This document shows positions 796 to 30,815 of a DNA stretch of 64,000 nt, in pieces. Below the pieces are notes generated by a model. The model made no database searches, was not told where the DNA came from, and saw only the letters and a program-made list of their open reading frames with translations. Location: contig VGPF01000004.1 of the NCBI GenBank assembly GCA_016875535.1, forward strand, positions 1,588 through 65,587, given 5' to 3'. Every line of letters begins with the position of its first letter. Positions within the stretch are counted from its first letter, which is position 1. The position numbers were made by a program, and so were the translations under genes. The DNA is from Chloroflexota bacterium. GTDB taxonomy: Bacteria; Chloroflexota; Dehalococcoidia; SHYB01.

Positions 796-1869
796 ATGAA
801 TGATAAAATCTTCGCGCCACAATTTCACACGACGGCTCAACTCAAATCCAGCCTAGAAGACATCGAACGAAACCAGTGGCTCATTGAGCGAGTGCTCATC
901 ATGCCCAAGCATGAGGCTTGGGTGCGACGCGATGTGGCTGTGCGGCGCGCCACCGGCACAACGCGCATCGAAGGCGCTGCCCTAGACCAGCGCCAGGTAG
1001 CAGAGCTCGCACGCCGCACCCAGCCCGCAAAACTGAGCGAAGATGAAGCCGCGAACGTCAACGCCCTCGAGACCTATGAGTGGATTGACTATCTCAGCGG
1101 CCAGCAGGACATCCCGATGGATGAGTTTGTCATCCGGGAGATCAATCGGCACTTCCTGCGCGGCGCTTCAGAGATGCTGACGCCCGGCGTCTACCGCAAG
1201 GGACAGAATCACATCGGCAGCTTCCTGCCACCGGACCAGGGCGATGTGCCCGACCTGATGCGCGCATTCGGCTTGTGGCTCCGCCAAGAACCGGGCGATC
1301 TCAACCCTGTCTCGCGCGCCGCCATCGCCCACCTGCACTTCGTCGCCATCCACCCGTTCTGGGACGGCAACGGCCGGACTGCTCGCGGGCTCGCCACGTT
1401 GATCCTTCAGCGGTCGCGCTTCAGCTTCCACAAGCTCCTCTCTCTGGAGTACCGCTTCTACGAGCGCAGAGAGGCCTACCAGTCCGTCATCGCCGGAGCG
1501 GTCGGAACACGCTTCTCGCTCACTTATGATGCGACTCCCTTCGTTGAGTTCTTCGCGGCAGAGCTCGCGGGCCATGTCCAGGACCTTGTGAACTCCCTTA
1601 CCGATTGGCACCGCCGGATCGCGGAGCTGCATGGGCGCTTGGAGCGAGAGCATGCCGGACTCAACCCTCGTCAGATAGATGGGCTCATCTACGCCCTGCA
1701 AACGGGAGAACTGCGGCCGGCCGACTATAAGGAAATCACCAAGGCATCCGATGTGACATGCTCGCGGGATCTTGCGGGCCTGGTGAAGGCCGGCCTCCTC
1801 GCCGCCGAAGGCCGCACGCGAGGGCGGGTCTATAAAGTGGTGCGGAGTCAAGGGAAACAAAGGACGTAG
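796..1869 (+). CDS. Fic/DOC family protein (AMPylation/filamentation domain)
   Basis: Canonical Fic motif HPFWDGNGRTARG (HPFx[D/E]GNGR). Length 357 aa. Confidence 0.9.
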   Translation: MNDKIFAPQFHTTAQLKSSLEDIERNQWLIERVLIMPKHEAWVRRDVAVRRATGTTRIEGAALDQRQVAELARRTQPAKLSEDEAANVNALETYEWIDYLSGQQDIPMDEFVIREINRHFLRGASEMLTPGVYRKGQNHIGSFLPPDQGDVPDLMRAFGLWLRQEPGDLNPVSRAAIAHLHFVAIHPFWDGNGRTARGLATLILQRSRFSFHKLLSLEYRFYERREAYQSVIAGAVGTRFSLTYDATPFVEFFAAELAGHVQDLVNSLTDWHRRIAELHGRLEREHAGLNPRQIDGLIYALQTGELRPADYKEITKASDVTCSRDLAGLVKAGLLAAEGRTRGRVYKVVRSQGKQRT

Positions 1870-1887
1870 GCAACCACGCTTTCCCTC

Positions 1888-2643
1888 TCACGCCTCTTCG
1901 CGCTCCTCCTTCGCCGTGAAGCGCAGGCCCACCACGCGCCCGATCTCTGCGTAAGCGAACTTCCGCGCCAGCATCGTGTAGCGCCGCGATATCGCCTCCG
2001 CGTGGAAGGCGCTGCGGCACGCCACCACCAGCGTCGCGATCTGGTCGCCGCTGCGCTCGTCGGCGATGCTCACGGCTCTCGCTTCGCTGAAGTACATCTC
2101 AAAGCTCTGGATCGGGACCTCCTCCTTCAGCCGCTCCCGGATCTTCTCCCACAGCGCTGCACAAGTCACTCGCTCGCCTTTGAGGTTCACGATAGTAGGT
2201 TCCTTGGAAGGTTCCCTGGAAGATTCAATACTATGGGGGTGACGCTCTGCCGCCCCTGCATGACTCTCCGACGCCCCAGCCTGCTCCTCCGCCGCGCCCC
2301 CTCCCGTCGCAGCGACGCTCTCTCCCGTCGCGCCGTCGCCAGGAGGCGGCGCAGCGACGCCCTCCCGCGGCGGCGCATGGATGGGCAGGATGTAGAAGTT
2401 GGAGCTGTGCGACCCATCGGCCCGGCGGCGGCCGTCGCATTGGATGATGCCTTCGGCGATGAGCTGCTTGAGGGAGCGCTGCACCGTGCGGCGGTTCATC
2501 TCCAGCCGCCCGGCCAGTTCAAGGATGCCGGGCCAGCAGACGCCGCGCGCATCGGCGTGGTCGGCCAGGGCCAGCAGGACGGCCTTCGCTGTCGCGCTGC
2601 CCGCCCGCTGCTTCCATGCCCACTGCATCGCCGCGCCGCTCAT
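1888..2643 (-). CDS. Phage/plasmid replication-initiator-like protein: N-terminal winged HTH plus C-terminal DnaA-N-like domain
   Basis: N-terminus AKAVLLALADHADARGVCWPGILELAGRLEMNRRTVQRSLKQL is a typical replisome-organizer HTH. C-terminus ALWEKIRERLKEEVPIQSFEMYFSEARAVSIADER resembles the DnaA N-terminal helicase-interaction domain. Confidence 0.55.
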   Translation of the reverse strand: MSGAAMQWAWKQRAGSATAKAVLLALADHADARGVCWPGILELAGRLEMNRRTVQRSLKQLIAEGIIQCDGRRRADGSHSSNFYILPIHAPPREGVAAPPPGDGATGESVAATGGGAAEEQAGASESHAGAAERHPHSIESSREPSKEPTIVNLKGERVTCAALWEKIRERLKEEVPIQSFEMYFSEARAVSIADERSGDQIATLVVACRSAFHAEAISRRYTMLARKFAYAEIGRVVGLRFTAKEEREEA

Positions 2644-2847
2644 CCTATTTCCCTTCCTCCTAGCACAACTGTCGTAACTGAACGATCGAACAACCTAACC
2701 TCCCGATGCGGAATCTAAGAGAAAGTCACTTGGTTAGCTTGGGCAATTGCGTTCGAAGTAGTCAGCAAAACGTCCCTCTCGAGCAGCGCCATCCCGATGG
2801 CGTGAGCTCGTCTTCGAGCTACGTGAGGGATTGAGGGAGAGGTCTCC

Positions 2848-3060
2848 CTACCCCAGCCCGTTCACCGCTTTGATCACCGCCCCGATCTCCACGCTCTCCA
2901 CCGTCTGCTCATAGAGCGTCTTGCTGTCCGCCACCGCCTCGTCAACCTCCTGCAGACGGAAGGTCGCCTCGTCCTGCCCGTTCACCGGGGAGACGCGCAT
3001 CCACGTATTCAGTTTCCGCTGGCCCATGTGGTTCTCTTTGATGATCACCGTGTAGGACAT
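2848..3060 (-). CDS. Hypothetical small protein (70 aa)
   Basis: Strong RBS AGGAAAGGAG upstream of the ATG at 3060. Part of a co-directional small-gene array. Confidence 0.5.
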   Translation of the reverse strand: MSYTVIIKENHMGQRKLNTWMRVSPVNGQDEATFRLQEVDEAVADSKTLYEQTVESVEIGAVIKAVNGLG

Positions 3061-3103
3061 CTCGCTCCTTTCCTGCGGGCGACCATGCAAGATCGCCCTT
3101 CCA

Positions 3104-3355
3104 TCAGGTCCGCTCGCTCCTGCCCGCTGCCTCCATCTGCGCGACCTGCGGCTCCATCTTCCGCTCCGCCTCCTCCAGCGCCCCCCGCGCGCTGAGCAGC
3201 TCTTCGAACAGCTCCCGGCGTTCCTTGCGGAAGGCCTCCAGCGCCGCTTCGAAGGCCGCGTTATAGGCCGCCTCCGCCCGGGCCAGCCGCGCCTTCGCCC
3301 GGCAATAGGCCCGCAGCATCGTCTCCGCCTCGCTCAATCCTTCGCGCCACTGCAT
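3104..3355 (-). CDS. Hypothetical coiled-coil protein (83 aa)
   Basis: Ala/Glu-rich heptad-like sequence. In the operon array with its neighbours. Confidence 0.45.
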   Translation of the reverse strand: MQWREGLSEAETMLRAYCRAKARLARAEAAYNAAFEAALEAFRKERRELFEELLSARGALEEAERKMEPQVAQMEAAGRSERT

Positions 3356-3373
3356 CAGGGATCTCGCCTTTCG

Positions 3374-3694
3374 CTAATTCCGCGGCATCGTTCCCGGGCG
3401 GTAGGCTATTGCATCACGCACCGCCCAGGCGGAGTGCTCAACGTCCTCAACTTCGCTCCACGCCCGATCCGCCCTGGCGATGCCCTCAGGCCCAAGCTCC
3501 TCCGCGATGGCGGCCTTCACCCGCCCTGCGATGGCCAGCCAGTGCTCGAACATGGAGACCACCACCGGGTCCAAGCAGGGCAGAACGGCCAGGAGCGCAT
3601 ACCGGCGGGCGTCGATCTCCCACTGCCGCACCGCGTTGTAGTTCACCACCAGCACGAGTTCGGCGCTCATGCCGCAGCGTGGCTCGCCGAACAT
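3374..3694 (-). CDS. Hypothetical protein (106 aa)
   Basis: Excellent RBS AAGGAGGTG placed 8 nt before the ATG. Stop/start overlap (ATGA-type) with the upstream gene. Confidence 0.55.
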   Translation of the reverse strand: MFGEPRCGMSAELVLVVNYNAVRQWEIDARRYALLAVLPCLDPVVVSMFEHWLAIAGRVKAAIAEELGPEGIARADRAWSEVEDVEHSAWAVRDAIAYRPGTMPRN

Positions 3695-3696
3695 CG

Positions 3697-3966
3697 CTAC
3701 GCCACCTCCTTGCCCAGGATCTCCCGCTTGAAGCGGCGATCGCTCACCGCCTTGCGGCTCACCAGGTGCCGCTGGAGCGCGCGCATCGCCGCCTCATCCC
3801 AGGCCAGGGGCCCGCGGCGGCGCAGGCTGGCGCCCGTGGCCCGGTCCACCGGGCCGGAGCAGGAGGCGCACGTCACCTCCACGCCCGAAGGGTGCCGGGC
3901 GATGAAGATGGCGTTCCCGCAGCAGGAGCTGCGCACCGAGCAATCGAAGTGGGCGTAGGGCTCCAT
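3697..3966 (-). CDS. Cys-rich small protein (zinc-ribbon-like), first gene of the array divergent from the repressor
   Basis: C-x6-CC ... C-x2-C-x2-C pattern. RBS GAGAGGAG. Sits in the position a Cro/antirepressor would occupy. Confidence 0.5.
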   Translation of the reverse strand: MEPYAHFDCSVRSSCCGNAIFIARHPSGVEVTCASCSGPVDRATGASLRRRGPLAWDEAAMRALQRHLVSRKAVSDRRFKREILGKEVA

Positions 3967-4117
3967 CGCGCTCCTCTCGGTTCAAATACATGTCTAGTCA
4001 TCTATGGCTTATCGTAACTCCTGATGCCTAGTTGCCGTCAATGGGCGGATGGCGTACACTCGTAGCCACTTTGTATCACCATAGCTAGCCTCTGCTGGCT
4101 ATCACAGGAGCATAACG
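3967..4117. promoter_or_regulatory. Divergent promoter/operator region between the CI-like repressor and the small-gene array
   Basis: 150-bp spacer with short inverted repeats (ATAGCtagcc...ggGCTAT). Lambda-like immunity-region architecture. No operator consensus identified. Confidence 0.35.
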
Positions 4118-4747
4118 ATGGGAACACGGAAGAAGCTGCCGCAACGGGGTAAAGGGACCACCTTGGGCCAGCGCCTGCGCGAGGCGCGCCTGGCCCGCAA
4201 GCTCACCCAGCAGGAGGCGGGCGGTAAGACCAACCTCGCCAACATGTCCATCTCCCGCTACGAGCGCGACGCCGTGGAGCCCGGCCTCGACGCCCTCAAC
4301 CGCCTGGCCACCATCTACAAGGTCTCCGTGGACAGCCTCATCAAGGGCACCAACTTCCGCACCCCCCAGTTCGCCGGCGAGATCCCCATCCGCGGCTGGG
4401 TCGCCGCAGGCACCCCGCGCGAGGCCTACGAGCAGGACCTCGGCTCCATCACCGTCCCCGATTTCTTCCGCCTCGATTCGCCCAAATGCTTCGCCCTCAC
4501 CGTCTCCGGCGACTCCCTGGAAGGCGACGGCATCCGCAACGGCGACTTCCTCGTCGTGGACCCGGACGCCTCCGTCAAGCAGGGCGCCATCTTCATCGTC
4601 CGCGTCGGCGAAGAATTCGTCGCGCGTCACCTGCACATCGAAGAGGGCCACGTCCGCCTGCGGGCCGCCAACAAGAAGTACGAGGACATGAAGGCCTCCA
4701 GCGTCCAGTTCGTCGGGCGCGTCATCGGCCACATCAGGAAACTGTAG
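4118..4747 (+). CDS. CI/LexA-like repressor: XRE-family HTH plus S24 peptidase (self-cleaving)
   Basis: HTH 'TQQEAGGKTNLANMSISRYERD'. Ala-Gly cleavage site (VAAGTP). Ser nucleophile in SGDSL and Lys in ANKKY. Confidence 0.85.
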   Translation: MGTRKKLPQRGKGTTLGQRLREARLARKLTQQEAGGKTNLANMSISRYERDAVEPGLDALNRLATIYKVSVDSLIKGTNFRTPQFAGEIPIRGWVAAGTPREAYEQDLGSITVPDFFRLDSPKCFALTVSGDSLEGDGIRNGDFLVVDPDASVKQGAIFIVRVGEEFVARHLHIEEGHVRLRAANKKYEDMKASSVQFVGRVIGHIRKL

Positions 4748-4845: not shown

Positions 4846-5268
4846 ATGCTCCGCATCCACACCGCCATCGAGATCGCCGCTCCACCGGAGCGCATCTGGC
4901 ACGAGATCACGTCCCTGGACCAATGGGCCCAGTGGAACCCCATCATGACCCGCGCCTCCGGCGTCGTGGCCGTCGGTCGGCGCGTGAAGGTCTACATCGC
5001 GCCCGTCACTTACAAGGTGCGCGTCACCGAAGTCGTCCCAAACAGAGTCTTCCGCTGGGTGGGCAAGCGCCTCATCCAGGGCTTCATGGACGGCGGGCAC
5101 GCCTTCCTCATCACGCCCCTGGAGGGCGGCCGCGTGCGCCTGGAGCACACGGAGCAGTTCACCGGCATGCTGGTGCCACTCTTGAACCTCGTGGGCCTGG
5201 GGCGCATCACCCGCAACGGCTTCGAGAAGATGAACGCCGCCCTCAAGCGGCGCTGCGAAGGCCCGTAG
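4846..5268 (+). CDS. SRPBCC (polyketide cyclase/dehydrase-like) family protein
   Basis: Sequence pattern typical of the SRPBCC ligand-binding fold, ~140 aa. Confidence 0.6.
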   Translation: MLRIHTAIEIAAPPERIWHEITSLDQWAQWNPIMTRASGVVAVGRRVKVYIAPVTYKVRVTEVVPNRVFRWVGKRLIQGFMDGGHAFLITPLEGGRVRLEHTEQFTGMLVPLLNLVGLGRITRNGFEKMNAALKRRCEGP

Positions 5269-5271
5269 CCG

Positions 5272-5532
5272 CTACCGCCCGCCGTCCTTGAACTTCACCT
5301 TCATCCACAGGATGGCACCCGCAAGCGCCAGTGTCGCCGCGTTCGCCAGGATGATCGGCAGCGAGGCCTTCACCACGCCGTAGATAAGCCACAGCGCGAC
5401 GCCCATGACAAAGATGGCGTACATCCACAGCGAGACGTCCTTCGCCGACCGCTTGCGCCAGATCTCCGCCACCTGGGGCACAAAGGCCGCCGTCGTCAGC
5501 ACGCCCGCCAGAAAGCCGATCGCAGACTCCAT
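5272..5532 (-). CDS. SemiSWEET-type (PQ-loop) small membrane transporter
   Basis: ~86 aa, three predicted TM helices, PQ motif in TM1 (FVPQVAEIW). Confidence 0.6.
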   Translation of the reverse strand: MESAIGFLAGVLTTAAFVPQVAEIWRKRSAKDVSLWMYAIFVMGVALWLIYGVVKASLPIILANAATLALAGAILWMKVKFKDGGR

Positions 5533-5614
5533 AGCGCCGCCTTTCGAACGCACTCGCTACAGATTGTAATGGAAGGCGAAGAACTCCATTTGCACCCTGT
5601 GCTACCATCGTCCG

Positions 5615-7075
5615 ATGTGGAAGCTGCTGCTCGCAGTCTCCTTCGTCGCGGCCCTCCTCCTATCGGGCGCCCTCACCCATGCCCAGGGCAAACAGCCATC
5701 CCTGAGCATCACTGCACCTCGGCCAGGCAGCGTGCAGGCCAAGGCCGATGTTGAAATCAAGTTCAAGGCCGCGAACTTCAAGCTCGATGGCAAGTCCATC
5801 GGGGCCGGCAACAAGGCCGGCACCGGGCACATCGTCGTCTCCGTCAACGGCGTCGAGTTGACCCGCACCGCAAAGACCAGCATCAAAATCACGAGGCTTG
5901 ATGCAGGGGAGCACACCGTCACTGCCGCCCTCAGCAACAACGACCTCTCGCCGCTCGCGTCCCCCGTTGAAGCGAGTGTCACCTTCTCCTACCAACCGCC
6001 TGCCTCCGCAAAAGCAAGCTCCGGCTCGCTTGTGGTCCGGCCCACGCCGACCCTCACACCGACGCCAACCGCCACGCCGACGCCGACAGCGACTCCAACC
6101 CCAACACCGACCGTCACACCGACGCCGACACCGACGCCCACACCCACTCCAACACCGCCTCCCACTCCAACGCCCACGCCGACGCCAACACGAACGCCCA
6201 CGCCGACACCATCACCAACCCCCTCGATCTCTCAGGTCGCGTCGCGCTCACGGCCTGCCGTCGTGCGAATCAACGCGAGTGGCGCCAGCGGCAGCGGCTT
6301 CATCTTTGAGATTGACCGCGCTTCGGGTTCCGCCCTGGTTATGACCAATCAGCATGTCATCAGAGGAGCCCTCTCCTTGCGCGTCACGGTGAACGACAGC
6401 GACCAATACACGGCGACGCTCATCGGCGAGGACGCCTTCCGCGACCTTGCCGTCCTTCGCATTTGCTGTTCACCATCCTTCCAAGCCGCCGCCATCGTCC
6501 CCGATATCGGGATAGACCCAGGCGCTCCCGTCTTCACGCTTGGCTACCCGGTGAGCTTGCCGGGTCAGTCCACCCTCACCAACGGTATCCTGACGGCGAC
6601 GCGCTTCGATACTGCCTCGGACAGCTGGCTCATCCAGACCGATGCCGAAGTCAACCCAGGCAACAGCGGTGGGCCGCTCTTCCTCCTCGCCACCGGCGAA
6701 GTCATCGGCGTGGTCACGTCGCGCACCACCACCTCTGCCGATGGTCGTCCGGTCTTCGGCATCGGCTTCGCCGTCATGGGACGCACCGTTCTCGAGCGAT
6801 TACCTTCTCTCCGTTCAGGCGCCACGGCGCCCACGCCTGTGCCCACGCCGACCCCTACGCCGAACCCCCTGCCAAGCTCGGGCTTCGGCCCGGTCAGCGG
6901 CTCCCTGGCCCATTCCACAACAGCCGTCGCCAACGCCCTCGCCGGCATCGTGACAAGAGACGGCCTCGTTTCAGCGACCTTCACCGTTCCCTATACCGGC
7001 AGCACTGCGAACGGTTGGGACTTCGGCTTCTTCTTGCGATACACTGCCGCCACGGCAAATACCGCTAGCTCCTAG
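5615..7075 (+). CDS. Secreted trypsin-like S1 serine protease with Pro/Thr-rich linker
   Basis: Signal peptide. (PT)n linker. Catalytic motifs TNQHV, DLAVLRI and GNSGGPLF. Confidence 0.85.
6046..6232 (+). repeat. Tandem PT-encoding low-complexity repeat (ACNCCNACNCCG)n
   Basis: Read directly. Similar PT tracts occur at ~10390-10640 (minus-strand lipoprotein) and ~23650-23770. Confidence 0.8.
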
Positions 7076-7399
7076 TACGCCGTCGTCGTTGATGACCGCT
7101 TCCAGTGGTATCTCCTCATCCGCACCGCTAGTGGGACCACAGGCACAGCAACGCTCGTTACACGCGGCGTCTTTTCCACCCTCACCCGCTTCGGCCTCGC
7201 CGCAGGCTCCCAGAACACCGTCTCCGTTGACTTCCGCGGCAACTCCGGCCGCCTCCTCGTGAACGATGTCTTTGTCGCGAATCTGGACTTGAGCCAGCGA
7301 ACCGCCTCCGGCGATGTCGGCGTGCTCACCGGCTTTTTCGATATAGATGCGCGCCCTGGCGTCTCTACGGTCTACTCCAACTTCCGTCTCGCGCCGTAG
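7076..7399 (+). other. In-frame continuation of the protease ORF after a TAG stop at 7073-7075 (107 codons, beta-sandwich-like domain)
   Basis: Same frame, high GC3. The sequence ...[40 protein letters not shown]... reads as a single domain cut by the amber codon. Confidence 0.5.
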
Positions 7400-7486
7400 T
7401 CATAGAGGCCCCCCCTGCCCATCTCGCTCCGAAACTCCCTCCCTCCCCTCTTGACATCCTCTCCTCATTTCCATATATTTAGAAAT

Positions 7487-7795
7487 ATGAAAGCGCTCAC
7501 TCTCCTGCCCGCCCATGAGACCCTCCTCAAAGAGGAGCACGTCGAGGCCTTCAAGGCCCTCGCCCACGAAACGCGCATGCGCGTCTTCGTCCATCTGGTG
7601 CGCGCCGATCGCGAGGCGCCCGCAGGCGAGATCCAAGAGACCCTCGGCGTCCCCGGACCCACCCTCTCCCACCACCTGGACCTCCTCCGCAGGGCGGGCC
7701 TCATCCAGAGCCGGCAGGAGGAGCGCTACATCTACTACTCGGTCAAACGCGAGACAGTGCAGGAATTAGTTCGGTTGCTTACCGCTTGCTGCTAA
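7487..7795 (+). CDS. ArsR/SmtB family metalloregulator
   Basis: Winged-HTH signature (HETRMRVFVHLV...GEIQETLGVPGPTLSHHLDLLRRAGL). C-terminal CC. Confidence 0.8.
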   Translation: MKALTLLPAHETLLKEEHVEAFKALAHETRMRVFVHLVRADREAPAGEIQETLGVPGPTLSHHLDLLRRAGLIQSRQEERYIYYSVKRETVQELVRLLTACC

Positions 7796-7806
7796 AAGGA
7801 GGACCC

Positions 7807-8319
7807 ATGCCCGCGCGCATCCATATCCACATCCATAGTGACGACCTCGCCAAGAGCAAGGACTTCTACGAGAAGTTCTTCGGCGTCAAGCCCGTCAAGG
7901 ACCTGGCCGACTACGTCAAGTTCCTTCCCGATTTCGCTCCCGTCAACCTCGCCATCTCCGGCGGCTCCCTGGAGGCCGAAGGCGCCCGGCAGGTCAGCCA
8001 CGTCGGCGTCCAGCTCGATTCCTCCGAAGAGGTCTTCGAGCAGATGCAGCGCGTCAAGGCCACCGGCCTCAAGGTGCGCGACGAGATCAGCGTGAACTGT
8101 TGCCACGCCAACCAGGACAAGTTCTGGGTCCGCGACCCCAGCGGCATTGACTGGGAGGTCTATCACCTCAACTACGACCTTGACCCCATCGAAGAGAAGA
8201 AGATGGGCATGGCCAAGCGCGGCAAGCTGATCGGCCTCACCACTATGGCTCCCGCCGCAGGCTGCTGCCCCACGCCTCCGGCCCGCAGCCGCACGGAGCG
8301 GCACGAGACCCACGCCTAG
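7807..8319 (+). CDS. VOC (glyoxalase-like) family metal(loid)-resistance protein, ArsI/CadI-like
   Basis: VOC fold with vicinal Cys pairs (VNCCHANQD and CCPTPP). Start overlaps the arsR stop and is preceded by RBS AAAGGAGGA. Confidence 0.55.
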   Translation: MPARIHIHIHSDDLAKSKDFYEKFFGVKPVKDLADYVKFLPDFAPVNLAISGGSLEAEGARQVSHVGVQLDSSEEVFEQMQRVKATGLKVRDEISVNCCHANQDKFWVRDPSGIDWEVYHLNYDLDPIEEKKMGMAKRGKLIGLTTMAPAAGCCPTPPARSRTERHETHA

Positions 8320-8340
8320 TCCCCGCGATCGTCGGCGTCG

Positions 8341-10698
8341 CTACCCCGTCACCAGGATCAGCGCGTCGCGCCCGGGGACGCTCACCGCATCTCCCGCAGG
8401 CGCGCCGCTGTTCACGGCGGCGTCCTGCGTCCCCGCGATGCGCCGCAGGGCTATCCCGGGGAAGAGGGCGCGCAGCTCGAACGTCACCGCCTGCAGGCTC
8501 GCGTTCACCAACACCACGCCGCGTTCGAAGCGCCGCGCAAAGATATCGCCGGGGCCTTCCATCAGCCGCGCGTCGTCCAGCCACACATCGCCGGCCTCCC
8601 TGCCGAGCTCCATTACCAGCGTCGCTCTGGCCTCGTCGCTCCGCACGATGAACGTCAGCGAATAGTCCCGCCACGCGCCATCGGCCATCACATCCTGCGT
8701 CGCTGGCCGCGACCCGGCCACGCTCGGCGTCGCGATGCCGAAGGCGATGCGGCGCGGGATCCGCCCGTACGCGGCGTCCCGAGCGCCGTACTTCGGGTCG
8801 GCGGCGACCTTCACGCGCAGCGTATATTCCCGATCCTTCCGCACGGCGAATGTGCCGATGCTCACGCTGATCTTCGAATCGGCAGGGTCTCGATCGAGCT
8901 GAGTGATGCTTACTTTGAGCGAGCCGCTTCCGCTGCCCGCCTTCGCCGCGTCCCTCGAGAGCGTCGCCCGCGATTGGCCGAGCTGGGTGAGCGTCGCGCC
9001 GCTGGTGTCCCGCTCGAAGTCGCCGCTCGCGAGAAGGTTCGGCGCATTCGTCAGGCGGTCGAGCCTGCGCGGCTCCTCCACGGGCCTGCCCAGATAGCCC
9101 CAGCGGTTCTCCCGTCCCGCCTTGAACTCATCCGGCTCCGCGTAGTTGAGCCGCGTCGCCGGGTCCACGTAGGCGCACTGGTCCCGTTCCACTTCAGGGT
9201 TCACGGGGATGTAGGCGAAGTAGCCGTTGCCCAGCAGCGCCGCGCCAAGGGCCAGGCGTATCTTCCAGTTCGTCCCCTTCTCCTCCTCCGGACAGCGCGT
9301 GAATGCCTCGGTGAACTCCTTCAGCTGCAGGTAGGAGAGTCGCGGCGCGCGGGCCTCCTGGAGCCAGTAGAAATAGCGCTGCAGCGGCGCCGAGATCTCG
9401 TCCCACTGGTGCAGGTCGGGGAACGACTCGTTCTCGATGCCGTTGGCGAACTCCGTGTCCCGGTTGCTGGTATCGCCCGTCGCCTCGCTGATGAGGAAGA
9501 CGCTCTCGCCCACCAGGGAGCGCAGCGTCTGCATGAAGGTCACGGCGCCCAGCCCGTACGAGCTGGCGTTGTTGCTGTAGCCTGCGTCCGCCGCGCCGTC
9601 GTTGTCGCAATCCAGCCTGCGGTTCGGGCCTTGCACCGTGGAGGCGGCCGTGAAGCGCGAGACGTCGAACTGGTAGCCGTCTATCCCCTCAAGCGCCCCG
9701 CCCGGGCGCAGATAGCCCGCCAGCGTCTGCGCCAGCGCCTCGATAAGCCTTCTGCCCTGGGCGTCCCGCGGGCCTTCCAGGCAAAAGTTATACTTCCACA
9801 CTTCGTTGCTGTAGCGCACGTAGGCGTGGGCGGCCAGGCGCGTCTGCCCCGCGCGGAACTCCTGCGCCGTGGAGCCGTGGGCGCCCCGTGTCACCTGCAC
9901 CTGGCCGGGCGTCACAGCCACGATCCGCACCTGCTCCACCCGGCTATAGTCCGGCTTCCCATCGGCGCCCAGGGCCGTCATCTGCGCCGCTTCGCCGGGC
10001 AGGAACAGACTGCTGTCGGCCACGGGCAAGATCGTCGCGGCGGCGGAGACATTCGCTGCGAGCGTTGTGCCGTTCATGAGTAGCCAGTGGCCGGGAAAGA
10101 CTGCCGGCTGGCTGCCATCCGGGTTGCGCCCCTCGAAGAGGAAGTGGTCGAGGACGATCTTCTCCGGGTATCGCGATTTCACGGCGCGCAGGTACGGCCC
10201 CACGGCCTGCAGGCCGATGACCTCTTCGTCCAGCCCTTTCGCGATCACCATATCGTAGTTCGCCGCGATCGCAAGCGCTTGTTCCAGGGACTCATTGCCC
10301 GGCGTGCGCGCCAGCCGCTCGAGCACCGCGCGAAAGAGCGTCGCATGCGGATATGCCCGTTGCTGGTCCAGCAGCGCCTGCCCGCGAAGCGGCGGGCGCG
10401 TCGGCGTCGGCGTGGGCCTCTGCGTCGCGGTCGCCGTTGCGGTAGGCACAGGCCTGCCCGTCGCCGTCGGCGCGAGGGTCGGCGTTGGGGCGCGGGTCGG
10501 CGTCACCGTGCTGCCCGGCGTTGGGCTGGGCTGTGGCGCAACCGTTGTCCCCTGGGGCGGCGGCGTTCTTGCAGCCGTCGCCGTCGCCTGCGGCGTAGGC
10601 GTCGGCGAAGGTGGATCACCGCCGCCTGAAGCGCACGCCGCCAGCATGAGCGCCGCGCCGATCGCGATGAGTAGCGCCTCGATTCTTTGCCTCAACAT
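8341..10698 (-). CDS. Secreted lipoprotein, glycoside-hydrolase-like, with N-terminal PT linker and C-terminal CBM4/9-like domain
   Basis: Lipobox LMLAAC. Long PT linker. C-terminal ~150 aa resemble a galactose-binding-like CBM. The catalytic family was not identified. Confidence 0.5.
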   Translation of the reverse strand: MLRQRIEALLIAIGAALMLAACASGGGDPPSPTPTPQATATAARTPPPQGTTVAPQPSPTPGSTVTPTRAPTPTLAPTATGRPVPTATATATQRPTPTPTRPPLRGQALLDQQRAYPHATLFRAVLERLARTPGNESLEQALAIAANYDMVIAKGLDEEVIGLQAVGPYLRAVKSRYPEKIVLDHFLFEGRNPDGSQPAVFPGHWLLMNGTTLAANVSAAATILPVADSSLFLPGEAAQMTALGADGKPDYSRVEQVRIVAVTPGQVQVTRGAHGSTAQEFRAGQTRLAAHAYVRYSNEVWKYNFCLEGPRDAQGRRLIEALAQTLAGYLRPGGALEGIDGYQFDVSRFTAASTVQGPNRRLDCDNDGAADAGYSNNASSYGLGAVTFMQTLRSLVGESVFLISEATGDTSNRDTEFANGIENESFPDLHQWDEISAPLQRYFYWLQEARAPRLSYLQLKEFTEAFTRCPEEEKGTNWKIRLALGAALLGNGYFAYIPVNPEVERDQCAYVDPATRLNYAEPDEFKAGRENRWGYLGRPVEEPRRLDRLTNAPNLLASGDFERDTSGATLTQLGQSRATLSRDAAKAGSGSGSLKVSITQLDRDPADSKISVSIGTFAVRKDREYTLRVKVAADPKYGARDAAYGRIPRRIAFGIATPSVAGSRPATQDVMADGAWRDYSLTFIVRSDEARATLVMELGREAGDVWLDDARLMEGPGDIFARRFERGVVLVNASLQAVTFELRALFPGIALRRIAGTQDAAVNSGAPAGDAVSVPGRDALILVTG

Positions 10699-28514: not shown

Positions 28515-29744
28515 CTACTGCCCGCTCGGGCTGCTCTGGCCCTGGTCCGGCCCCTGCTGAGGCGGCGGGGGCGGCGGCTGGCCCCCCTCATCGCGCCGCT
28601 GGTCCTGGGGGCGCGGGCCCTGCTGCTGGTAGGGCGGGCGCTGATCGCGGCGATCATCGCGCCGGTCATGCCGGGGCGGGCCACCGCGGTCGTCGCGGCG
28701 ATCATCACGGCGGTCGCCCCTGGGCTGATCGCCCCGGGGCTGGTCCCGGCGGTCGTCGCGGCGCTGGTTGTCCTGGCGGGGCTCGTTGCGGCGGTCGTCG
28801 CGCCGATCATCTCTGCGGTCGCCTCGCGGGCCGCCTCTGCGGTCGTCGCGGCGGTCGCGCTCCTGGGGCGGGCGCGGCTCGACGCGCCCCATGCCTTCGG
28901 CGGCGCTGGGCGCGGCGGGCACGGGGACGGGAAGAGGCTTGGCGGGGGCGGCGCCGCTCAGCTCGGCCATGGAGACTTCCACCCATGCGCCGCTTTCCAG
29001 CTGGACGGTGACGGTCTGCTTGAGGGGGTGGCCGACGACGACGCGGGCGGGGCCGTTGGCTGTGGGTACGGTCGCGCCGATCTTGGGGAGGCCCTGCTTC
29101 AGCTCGCGGTACTGCTCATACTCATAGCGGAGGCAGCAGCGGAGCCTTCCACAGACCCCCGCCAGCCCCGGGGGGCTGAGGGGAAGGTCCTGCTCTTTCG
29201 CCATCTTCATCGTGACCGGCGCGAACTCTGTGAGCCAGCTGCTGCAGCAGAGTTCGCGCCCGCAGCGTCCCAGTCCGCCGAGGGCCTTGGTATGGTCCCG
29301 CGGCCCAAGCTGCTTCAGGTCTATCTTCCCGGCGTGCTTGGCGCCCAGGCGCTGGAGGATGGGGCGGAATTCGATGCGCTCTTCGCTGGTGTAGCTCACG
29401 GTGAGGCGCTCGCCCGTGAGGTCAATGAAGGCCTCGACGATCTTCATCTCGAGATTGAGGTCGCGCACGATGGCGCGGGCCTCGTTATAGATCTCGTCGG
29501 CGCGGGCCTTGTTGCGGTCGCGGGCGGCCAGGTCCTCAGGGGCGGCCTTGCGGACGATCCTGGGCAAGGAGCCCTTGATCTTCTGCATCAGCACCTGGGT
29601 GGGGGCGATGGCGACGAGCCCCGTCTCCAGGCCGCGCTCGGTCTCGACGACGGCCGATTCGGCGACGGCGAACTCCTCGTCCCCAGGGTCGAAGTACTGG
29701 ACCTTGCCAGCCTTCATGAATCGTAAGCCGACGACTCCTGCCAT
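28515..29744 (-). CDS. ricT: PSP1-domain protein RicT/YaaT with long Arg/Asp-rich C-terminal tail
   Basis: PSP1 core GRCGRELCCSSWL. Conserved position downstream of holB. Confidence 0.75.
   Translation of the reverse strand: MAGVVGLRFMKAGKVQYFDPGDEEFAVAESAVVETERGLETGLVAIAPTQVLMQKIKGSLPRIVRKAAPEDLAARDRNKARADEIYNEARAIVRDLNLEMKIVEAFIDLTGERLTVSYTSEERIEFRPILQRLGAKHAGKIDLKQLGPRDHTKALGGLGRCGRELCCSSWLTEFAPVTMKMAKEQDLPLSPPGLAGVCGRLRCCLRYEYEQYRELKQGLPKIGATVPTANGPARVVVGHPLKQTVTVQLESGAWVEVSMAELSGAAPAKPLPVPVPAAPSAAEGMGRVEPRPPQERDRRDDRRGGPRGDRRDDRRDDRRNEPRQDNQRRDDRRDQPRGDQPRGDRRDDRRDDRGGPPRHDRRDDRRDQRPPYQQQGPRPQDQRRDEGGQPPPPPPQQGPDQGQSSPSGQ
28530..28900 (-). repeat. Imperfect tandem repeats encoding the (RDDRR)n-like tail
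   Basis: Recurring gcggtcgtcgcggcg units on the forward strand. Confidence 0.7.
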
Positions 29745-29756
29745 GTCTGCTCTGAT

Positions 29757-30815
29757 CTAGACCTGTTCCGCTTCCGGCTCGGCCGCGGGCCGCCCTGTTG
29801 GAGCGGGCTCCGCCGCCTTCACCAGCGGCAGGTTCAACGCAAAAGTTTCGAGGGTCAAGCGCGGGTTGGCGTTCAACTGCAGCCGCGCTATGGCCGACTC
29901 GGTTTCCCGGATGGCCCCCGCCAGCTCAGCCAGCGTGAGCGACCCGGTCATCCTCTCCAGCATATCACGCCTATCGGCGTTGACGACGGCCTGGGGCGAC
30001 CCGCCCTTCAGCAGGAGGGCGTCCCGCCAGAGCCGGCGCAAGAGGGCGAGGGCCTCATAGGACTCCTCCCGCCTGCGGGAGAAGTCCTGGGCCATGCGCC
30101 CCGCCAGCTGGAGGCGCTCCACATAACCCGACTCGATAAGCTCGACGGCCTCATCCACCAGGTCGCGGCGGGTTTCCTCCACGGCGGGGTTCTGCGCCGC
30201 CGCCAGGGCCCAGCCGATGCGCCCCTCGGAGAGGCGGGCGAGCTCGCGGGCGCGCTCCTTATCGGTACCGTGGAGCTTCATCAGGGCATCGGTGATGGCC
30301 TGTTCCGGCACGGAGCGGAGGTCGTAGACGCGGCAGCGGGAGACGATGGTGGGGAGGAGCTTCGCCGGCTCACGAGAGAGGAGGAGGATGCAGACCTGCG
30401 CGGGAGGCTCCTCCAGCGTCTTCAAGAGGCGGTTGGCGGCGTTCACGTTCAACAGCTCGGCGTTTTCGATGATGAAGACCCTGTGCGCGCCTTCGAAAGG
30501 AGCCAGGCTGGCCATCTCCTGCAGGGCCTCCACCTGCTTGATGCTGATCTCTTTCTGCGTCTCTTCGCCGTCTCCCCCCAAGCCCACCACCTGCACATCG
30601 GCGTGCTTGCCATCCAGGATGCGCTTGCACTGGGCGCAGGCGCCGCAGGGCTTGCCATCGGCGAGGCAGTTGAGGGCGCAGGCCAGCTGCATCGCGAGGG
30701 TCATCTTGCCGATGCCCTGGGGACCGGTGAAGAGGTAGGCGTGGGCCAGCTTTCCATCCTTGACCGATTGGGCCAGGGCTAGGACCACCCGCTCATGCCC
30801 GATGACGTTCCACAT
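29757..30815 (-). CDS. holB: DNA polymerase III delta' subunit
   Basis: AAA+ Walker A FTGPQGIGK. Zinc module C-x8-C-x2-C-x2-C. SRC motif. Confidence 0.85.
   Translation of the reverse strand: MWNVIGHERVVLALAQSVKDGKLAHAYLFTGPQGIGKMTLAMQLACALNCLADGKPCGACAQCKRILDGKHADVQVVGLGGDGEETQKEISIKQVEALQEMASLAPFEGAHRVFIIENAELLNVNAANRLLKTLEEPPAQVCILLLSREPAKLLPTIVSRCRVYDLRSVPEQAITDALMKLHGTDKERARELARLSEGRIGWALAAAQNPAVEETRRDLVDEAVELIESGYVERLQLAGRMAQDFSRRREESYEALALLRRLWRDALLLKGGSPQAVVNADRRDMLERMTGSLTLAELAGAIRETESAIARLQLNANPRLTLETFALNLPLVKAAEPAPTGRPAAEPEAEQV

Follow-up and report, generated by a model that had tools for sequence, protein, structure and literature searches.

An in-frame amber codon within the C-terminal domain of a Chloroflexota protease gene: a probable recent nonsense mutation in a gene under loss

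Why does the reading frame of a bacterial protease gene run on, apparently intact, for more than a hundred codons past its stop? The question is raised by a 64,000-nucleotide stretch of the metagenome-assembled contig VGPF01000004.1 (Chloroflexota bacterium, Dehalococcoidia, SHYB01; assembly GCA_016875535.1), hereafter the window. In it, the open reading frame (ORF) of a putatively secreted S1-type protease, read from 5615 on the forward strand, is terminated after 486 amino acids by an amber codon, TAG, at 7073-7075. Beyond this codon the same frame stays open over 7076-7396, 107 codons, and ends at a further TAG at 7397-7399. We consider it likely that the codon at 7073-7075 is a recent, ordinary nonsense mutation truncating a secreted Trypsin_2 protease, in a gene that its clade is losing. 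Here we give the evidence for this assignment and weigh it against sequencing error, recoding and read-through.

The interrupted gene and its C-terminal domain

An open extension is by itself unremarkable in DNA of 65% G+C, as at least 100 open codons follow the stop in 15 of the 55 genes called in the window. The extension at 7076-7396 is lifted above chance by its codon bias, its homology and the continuity of the domain that it encodes. Under a codon-usage model trained on the window it scores +0.34 bits per codon, with the other five frames at -0.14 to -1.31, and the encoded protein is 77-79% identical to two orthologues. An earlier reading of the sequence alone had noted the amber codon and a matching codon bias over the 107 codons, and both observations are confirmed. 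A GC3-based screen for coding-stop-coding sites left TAG 7073-7075 itself unflagged because the protease gene has an atypical composition, and the codon-usage model was used instead. The antisense ORF that gene callers place in the same stretch (Table 1) scores -0.25 per codon against +0.34 for the forward frame; codon statistics and conservation show it to be spurious. The TAG at 7397-7399 is followed by TCA and a second TAG, and this tandem amber, TAG TCA TAG (7397-7405), is the ancestral terminator of the protease gene. The orthologues likewise have a second in-frame TAG, six codons past their own terminal TAG.

Joined across the stop, the protein has 594 residues. By eye, its N-terminus consists of MWK, 17 hydrophobic residues and an AxA-type site, with THA before and QG after the putative cleavage point. 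The catalytic domain matches the Pfam model PF13365 at 85.3 bits (cut-off 27.6, E 9e-24) over residues 226-366, and the motifs TNQH(247)V, RD(277)LAV and GNS(351)GGP are present in the window protein and conserved in P0001 and P0002, the two orthologues described below, and in P0004-P0008. The sequence-only reading of a secreted S1 protease is therefore borne out as an S1-type (Trypsin_2) enzyme with a putative signal peptide. Pfam gives no match to a PDZ domain in the protease; a jelly-roll domain occupies that position.

This C-terminal domain comprises 176 residues (6869-7396). In a first search it was found uninterrupted in more than 30 homologous proteases, which carry one or two copies each and match the query over positions ~3-174. 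A profile of the domain retrieves 3,202 cluster representatives from a library of 1.8 billion proteins, 762 of them at E<=1e-30, and each best match listed covers most or all of its 167 positions. No Pfam model reaches its threshold (PF06439 scores 15.2-18.7 bits with a cut-off of 26.8, and PF13385 is also sub-threshold), and a profile search of the PDB with the domain sequence gives matches at chance level only. The weak PF06439 match and every homologue alignment run unbroken across the stop.

The structure was modelled on the domain of the orthologue P0001, which is 79% identical to that of the window and aligns without gaps. The AlphaFold2 model (pLDDT 92.4, pTM 0.88) contains 12 beta-strands, and Foldseek relates it to GH16 lichenases, CBM66 and the botulinum neurotoxin (BoNT) Hc domain (E ~1e-6, TM 0.55-0.61, probability 1.0). 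The C-terminal domain is a single module, which this model predicts to be a ConA-like 12-strand jelly-roll. The stop corresponds to domain residue 69, within the strand formed by residues 67-75, the fifth of the twelve; in distant homologues this position is mostly taken by Phe, Leu or His. The alignments and the model agree with the proposal that the peptides on both sides of the stop belong to one beta-sandwich domain. The accompanying description, of a stop that splits the protease from a C-terminal domain, holds for the existence of such a domain but not for the place of the stop, which lies 68 residues inside it.

Other members of the jelly-roll family (P0129-P0278) often carry 2-6 tandem copies, in proteins of up to 2,219 amino acids. 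In two distant homologues, P0028 and P0032, the jelly-roll is broken by frameshifts, with the remainder conserved in another frame; the frameshift sites lie at ~3270-3310 in contig L077 and at ~3817-3831 and ~4466-4475 in contig L078. The contig names (ctg..._18.90x_c) suggest long-read assemblies, and the frameshifts may therefore result from indel errors rather than from biology. P0029, P0033, P0039 and P0061 have Arg-rich tails similar to those of the frameshifted P0028 and P0032.

Table 1. Coordinates of the protease gene, its encoded parts and associated features in the window
Feature	Position	Strand	Remark
ORF as now terminated	5615..7075	+	486 codons + TAG; signal peptide to first 68 jelly-roll residues
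Putative Sec signal peptide	5615..5683	+	read by eye from translation
Ig-like N-terminal domain	5696..6019	+	weak Big_7 match
Pro/Thr-rich linker, ~65 residues	6038..6223	+	encoded by imperfect 12/18-nt repeats
S1 (Trypsin_2) catalytic domain	6224..6820	+	PF13365
Catalytic His247	6353-6355	+	intact
Catalytic Asp277	6443-6445	+	intact
Catalytic Ser351	6665-6667	+	intact
Second short Pro/Thr linker	6821..6868	+	from translation
First 68 jelly-roll residues, strands 1-4	6869..7072	+	upstream of stop
In-frame amber TAG	7073..7075	+	codon 487, residue 69 of jelly-roll domain
107 codons, rest of strand 5 and strands 6-12	7076..7396	+	intact
Antisense ORF, 85 aa	7072-7329	-	placed by JGI gene callers in the stretch after the stop
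Segment with whole protease gene	5569..7449		absent from L082

The stop codon in relatives and in the sampled population

The closest relative of the protease, P0001 (81% identity; contigs L003 and L049; NCBI metagenome records SXGS/SXGR), has TGG at the site of the stop (...TPST-W-YAVIVDD...). The next, P0002 (75% identity; contigs L004 and L005, from two ENA assemblies), has TAC (...SAST-Y-FAIVVDD...). The sense codon whose presence in orthologues had been proposed as a check is thus found in both lineages. Neither lineage ends at this position; both read on through the entire jelly-roll, and the frame past the stop is conserved and forms part of a fold. A single substitution thus separates the window TAG from an aromatic ancestral codon, and the stop is not conserved among orthologues. 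A scan of GTDB genomes for relatives found distant HtrA-like ones only, and a metagenome scan added one further copy of the 81% orthologue, on L049.

Given that the window is a metagenome-assembled contig, the TAG could in principle be an artefact of sequencing or assembly that conceals a sense codon. The same TAG, in surroundings that are 100% identical, is present in contigs of seven other assemblies: JGI 3300020197 (L001) and 3300020193 (L070); Logan SRR7990525 (L002), SRR7990526 (L071), SRR7053297 (L072, the same as L080) and SRR16108669 (L083); and ENA ERZ27247963 (L079). Shared samples may underlie part of the JGI and SRA items, but several are clearly separate runs. This rules out the sequencing error that had been offered as one explanation, and we regard the chance that the true codon is a sense codon as negligible. 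L079 differs from the window by 15 mismatches and a 3-nt gap over 4.6 kb and represents a variant strain, so that the TAG is common to at least two strain variants. No variants were seen in the 107-codon tail across these assemblies. The sole polymorphism seen in the gene, A/G at position 6393 (codon 260, Asn/Ser), lies upstream of the stop. An exact look-up of the protein encoded by the adjacent PQ-loop gene revealed no new strain variants.

The gene is unstable in other members of the clade. The orthologue on L004 and L005, which is identical in these two assemblies, has an in-frame TAG of its own at codon 134 (...AFTY-stop-PPSKPG..., L004 870-872), where the Ig-like domain ends. In the window the matching codon is CAA (codon 127, 5993-5995), and in L049 it is CAG. 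Past this second amber the remaining 1.4 kb are intact, with dN/dS of 0.06-0.12. In a third case the gene is missing altogether. Over positions 1-1380, L082 (Logan ERR14789950) matches window 5169-5568 at 97.5% identity and window 7450-8419 at 98.7%, with 10 nt, GCGTGATTGA, in place of the intervening segment 5569-7449. Window 7424-7449 resembles the sequence upstream of an ArsR-type regulator gene in L004, and by this likeness L082 looks like a deletion derivative.

The gene has also moved. The order in the window is cyclase, PQ-loop (reverse strand), protease, ArsR, and that in L003, L049 and L004 is cyclase, protease, PQ-loop (reverse strand). The PQ-loop/MtN3 gene lies at 5272-5553 on the reverse strand of the window, at 3316-3576 in L003 and at 2312-2572 in L004. 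L004 carries an AAA_15 and DUF4276 cassette in the slot between the PQ-loop gene and the ArsR-type regulator gene, and this slot looks like a variable spot. Because the protease gene has been moved, deleted and twice hit by nonsense among few relatives, it is expendable in this clade. The proposal of a recent nonsense mutation accordingly gains support from the TGG and TAC codons of the orthologues, the independent TAG in one relative and the whole-gene deletion in another.

The window lineage is the outgroup to the L003/L049 and L004/L005 lineages. As this makes a three-taxon relative-rate test impossible, dN/dS was instead estimated region by region (Nei-Gojobori). With dS at 0.9 or more and partly saturated, the ratios are averages over long branches in which a short recent neutral phase would be invisible: they are 0.068 (window against L049) and 0.157 (window against L004) for the 107 codons past the stop, 0.061 and 0.202 for the half of the jelly-roll before it, and 0.164 and 0.176 for the protease domain. 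The distal residues conserved in the family, W80, N116, G127, N132, D140 and G148, are all kept in the window, and the 107-codon tail contains neither a frameshift nor a second stop. This lack of decay indicates that the mutation is young: set against the divergence of the orthologues, the stop is recent. The ratios do not show that the tail is still translated.

Origin of the amber codon and competing explanations

The favoured explanation, a recent nonsense mutation, would begin with a single-base change, TGG to TAG or TAY to TAG, where beta-strand 5 of the jelly-roll begins. Translation would end at this codon and yield a product with an intact catalytic domain and four of the twelve jelly-roll strands, a remnant that would be unable to fold alone. 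The 107 downstream codons would be left-over coding sequence too young for decay, and are now probably untranslated beyond basal read-through. At consensus level the TAG allele would be fixed in the sampled lake population. It would represent one step in the ongoing loss of an expendable gene from the clade, alongside the other amber in the sister lineage and the deletion in a strain of ~98% identity. Secreted proteases are classic shared goods, the loss of which can be neutral or favoured. We infer that full-length protein is not produced in any meaningful amount and that losing the protease was neutral or favoured, for example because it spares the cell the cost of an enzyme secreted for shared use.

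Several observations weigh against this explanation. Two of the three sampled lineages carry an amber codon, rather than TGA or TAA, with no other lesion, which is more than would be expected of a typical gene. A search of 5.8 billion proteins found no intact allele of the sampled population, which makes the mutation undatable. Relaxed selection is undetectable past the stop, where dN/dS (0.07-0.16) is no higher than upstream; an unrelaxed tail fits a very young mutation and equally fits continued translation. Finally, the deletion is represented by a single 1.4-kb contig.

The possibility of continued translation is best expressed as functional leaky read-through, in which near-cognate tRNAs (Tyr, Gln, Trp) decode the TAG at low frequency, so that a little full-length protease is made, the tail remains under selection, and the codon acts as an attenuator or reversible off-switch. 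The intact tail with its low dN/dS and complete set of conserved residues would be accounted for, as would the sister-lineage orthologue whose frame is intact over 1.4 kb past an independent amber, and the occurrence of the TAG in at least two strain variants. Read-through of some in-frame stops in bacteria has also been argued for in the literature (PMC7918605). Yet neither orthologue lineage shares the stop, and the low ratios on which the argument leans are blind to a short recent neutral phase. The stop also falls inside a beta-strand, so that the terminated product would be a misfolded by-product and not a designed isoform. The region 7060-7200 (141 nt) folds no better than shuffled sequences (z = 0.10), Rfam has no match in 5300-7900 at E<=1, and scans around the stop for promoters, terminators and repeats found neither a promoter inside the gene nor a terminator or plausible restart signal; past the stop, the frame offers no start codon before a GTG at 7259. 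TAG is the main terminator in the window, and efficient amber termination is to be expected.

The immediate context of the stop points the same way. In E. coli, a purine directly after the amber codon promotes its suppression. T follows the stop in the window and C in L004, and thus neither context looks leaky; after the genuine TAG terminators of the window the next base is C in 13 cases, G in 9, A in 2 and T in 2. A Shine-Dalgarno-like motif precedes only 20 of the 55 window genes, too few to gauge the effect of the rearranged 5' region on expression. Taken together, we consider functional leaky read-through unlikely. The stronger proposal of programmed read-through producing two isoforms is unsupported: the stop is unconserved and inside a fold, it lacks an RNA structure or Rfam element in the regions searched, and TAG is the main terminator.

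That two related lineages have an in-frame TAG, and only TAG, in the protease gene could also indicate that the codon is decoded as an amino acid, by pyrrolysine or a dedicated amber suppressor tRNA, in which case the gene would be intact. We consider this very improbable. The 55 genes called in the window are terminated by 26 TAG, 15 TAA and 14 TGA codons, and a terminal TAG also ends the protease gene of the window and both orthologues. None of the other ~54 window genes contains an in-frame TAG, and the ~8 neighbour genes shared with L003, L004, L005 and L049 contain no in-frame stop. The only tRNAs in the 64-kb window are Pro-GGG and Gln-TTG, and it contains neither a tRNA with anticodon CUA nor pylS/pylBCD. 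At the two TAG sites, moreover, orthologues have ordinary Trp or Tyr and Gln codons.

Two pairs of ORFs that share a frame across a TAG were rejected as split genes. The one serious candidate, 29757-30815 and 28515-29744, consists of holB and a PSP1-domain gene, which are commonly separate neighbours. The other, 3374-3694 and 3104-3355, is made up of small hypothetical ORFs that both start with an ATG of their own; neither pair represents an in-frame TAG. The single in-frame stop flagged among the neighbour genes lies within a probable 5' over-extension of the PQ-loop ORF call. High-G+C bacteria more often favour TGA, and the prevalence of TAG among the stops of this window, at 65% G+C, looks unusual.

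A further variant would treat the recurrent ambers as tolerated or selected, reversible leaky 'dimmer' alleles of a secreted-protease gene. Basal near-cognate read-through would then provide some full-length enzyme, and one back-mutation would restore full expression. We consider this proposal unlikely. If it is correct, a costly public-good enzyme of uncultured freshwater Chloroflexi would have a nonsense-based on/off switch, and leaky read-through of any functional kind would make the locus a testable case for bacterial in-frame stops as expression regulators.

For annotation, our analysis implies that the locus should be described as a single gene, 5615-7399, that is interrupted by an internal stop. 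Automatic callers instead split it into a 486-aa protease and an antisense 85-aa hypothetical gene. With its late-nonsense, early-nonsense and deletion lineages, the locus offers a small, clean case, in nature, of an uncultured lake bacterium in the course of losing a gene.

Two other features of the surrounding region may be mentioned. A 785-aa protein encoded on the reverse strand at 8341-10698 (MBM4404986.1) has a signal-like N-terminus and a Pro/Thr-rich region; it is annotated as hypothetical and has no Pfam match on record. Just upstream, the region 796-4747 contains genes for a Fic protein, an HTH_36/DnaA_N-like protein and a LexA-like repressor (HTH_3 and Peptidase_S24), together with four small ORFs that lack a Pfam match on record. 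This cluster resembles the remnant of an integrated element and is largely syntenic in L049.

Comparison with known systems

Short-lived in-frame stops with low dN/dS have been described as common in bacterial genes (PMC7918605), and the site at 7073-7075 would be a further instance of this phenomenon. Like the young pseudogenes and nonsense polymorphisms of that study (Belinky et al. 2021, PMC7918605), it has one nonsense substitution within a gene that is conserved and elsewhere intact, sequences near the stop that have diverged little or not at all, a signature of purifying selection downstream, and stop positions that differ between relatives. The window gene differs in that several samples of a natural population yielded the nonsense allele and no other, and in that a near-identical strain has lost the whole gene. 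In systems of programmed read-through, such as the Q-beta coat extension, murine leukaemia virus (MuLV) gag-pol and certain Drosophila genes, an in-frame stop is likewise followed by a conserved, protein-like frame. In contrast to that of the window gene, their stop is conserved and coincides with the boundary of a domain or protein, and a stimulatory context or structure usually accompanies it.

The protease itself resembles the S1 Trypsin_2 (PF13365) peptidases related to HtrA/DegP (S1C) in its 85-bit match, its His, Asp and Ser motifs and its putative N-terminal export signal. It is not an HtrA protein proper, as it lacks a PDZ domain and instead combines an Ig-like N-terminal domain and long Pro/Thr linkers with a ConA-like jelly-roll, of which its distant homologues mostly contain two tandem copies. 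The predicted 12-strand beta-sandwich is shared with GH16 lichenases, CBM66, DUF1080/3-keto-disaccharide hydrolase and BoNT Hc-N, with TM values of 0.57-0.61 to CBM66 and GH16. In sequence, however, domains of the window type are only 10-15% identical to these ConA-like jelly-rolls and fall below every Pfam threshold.

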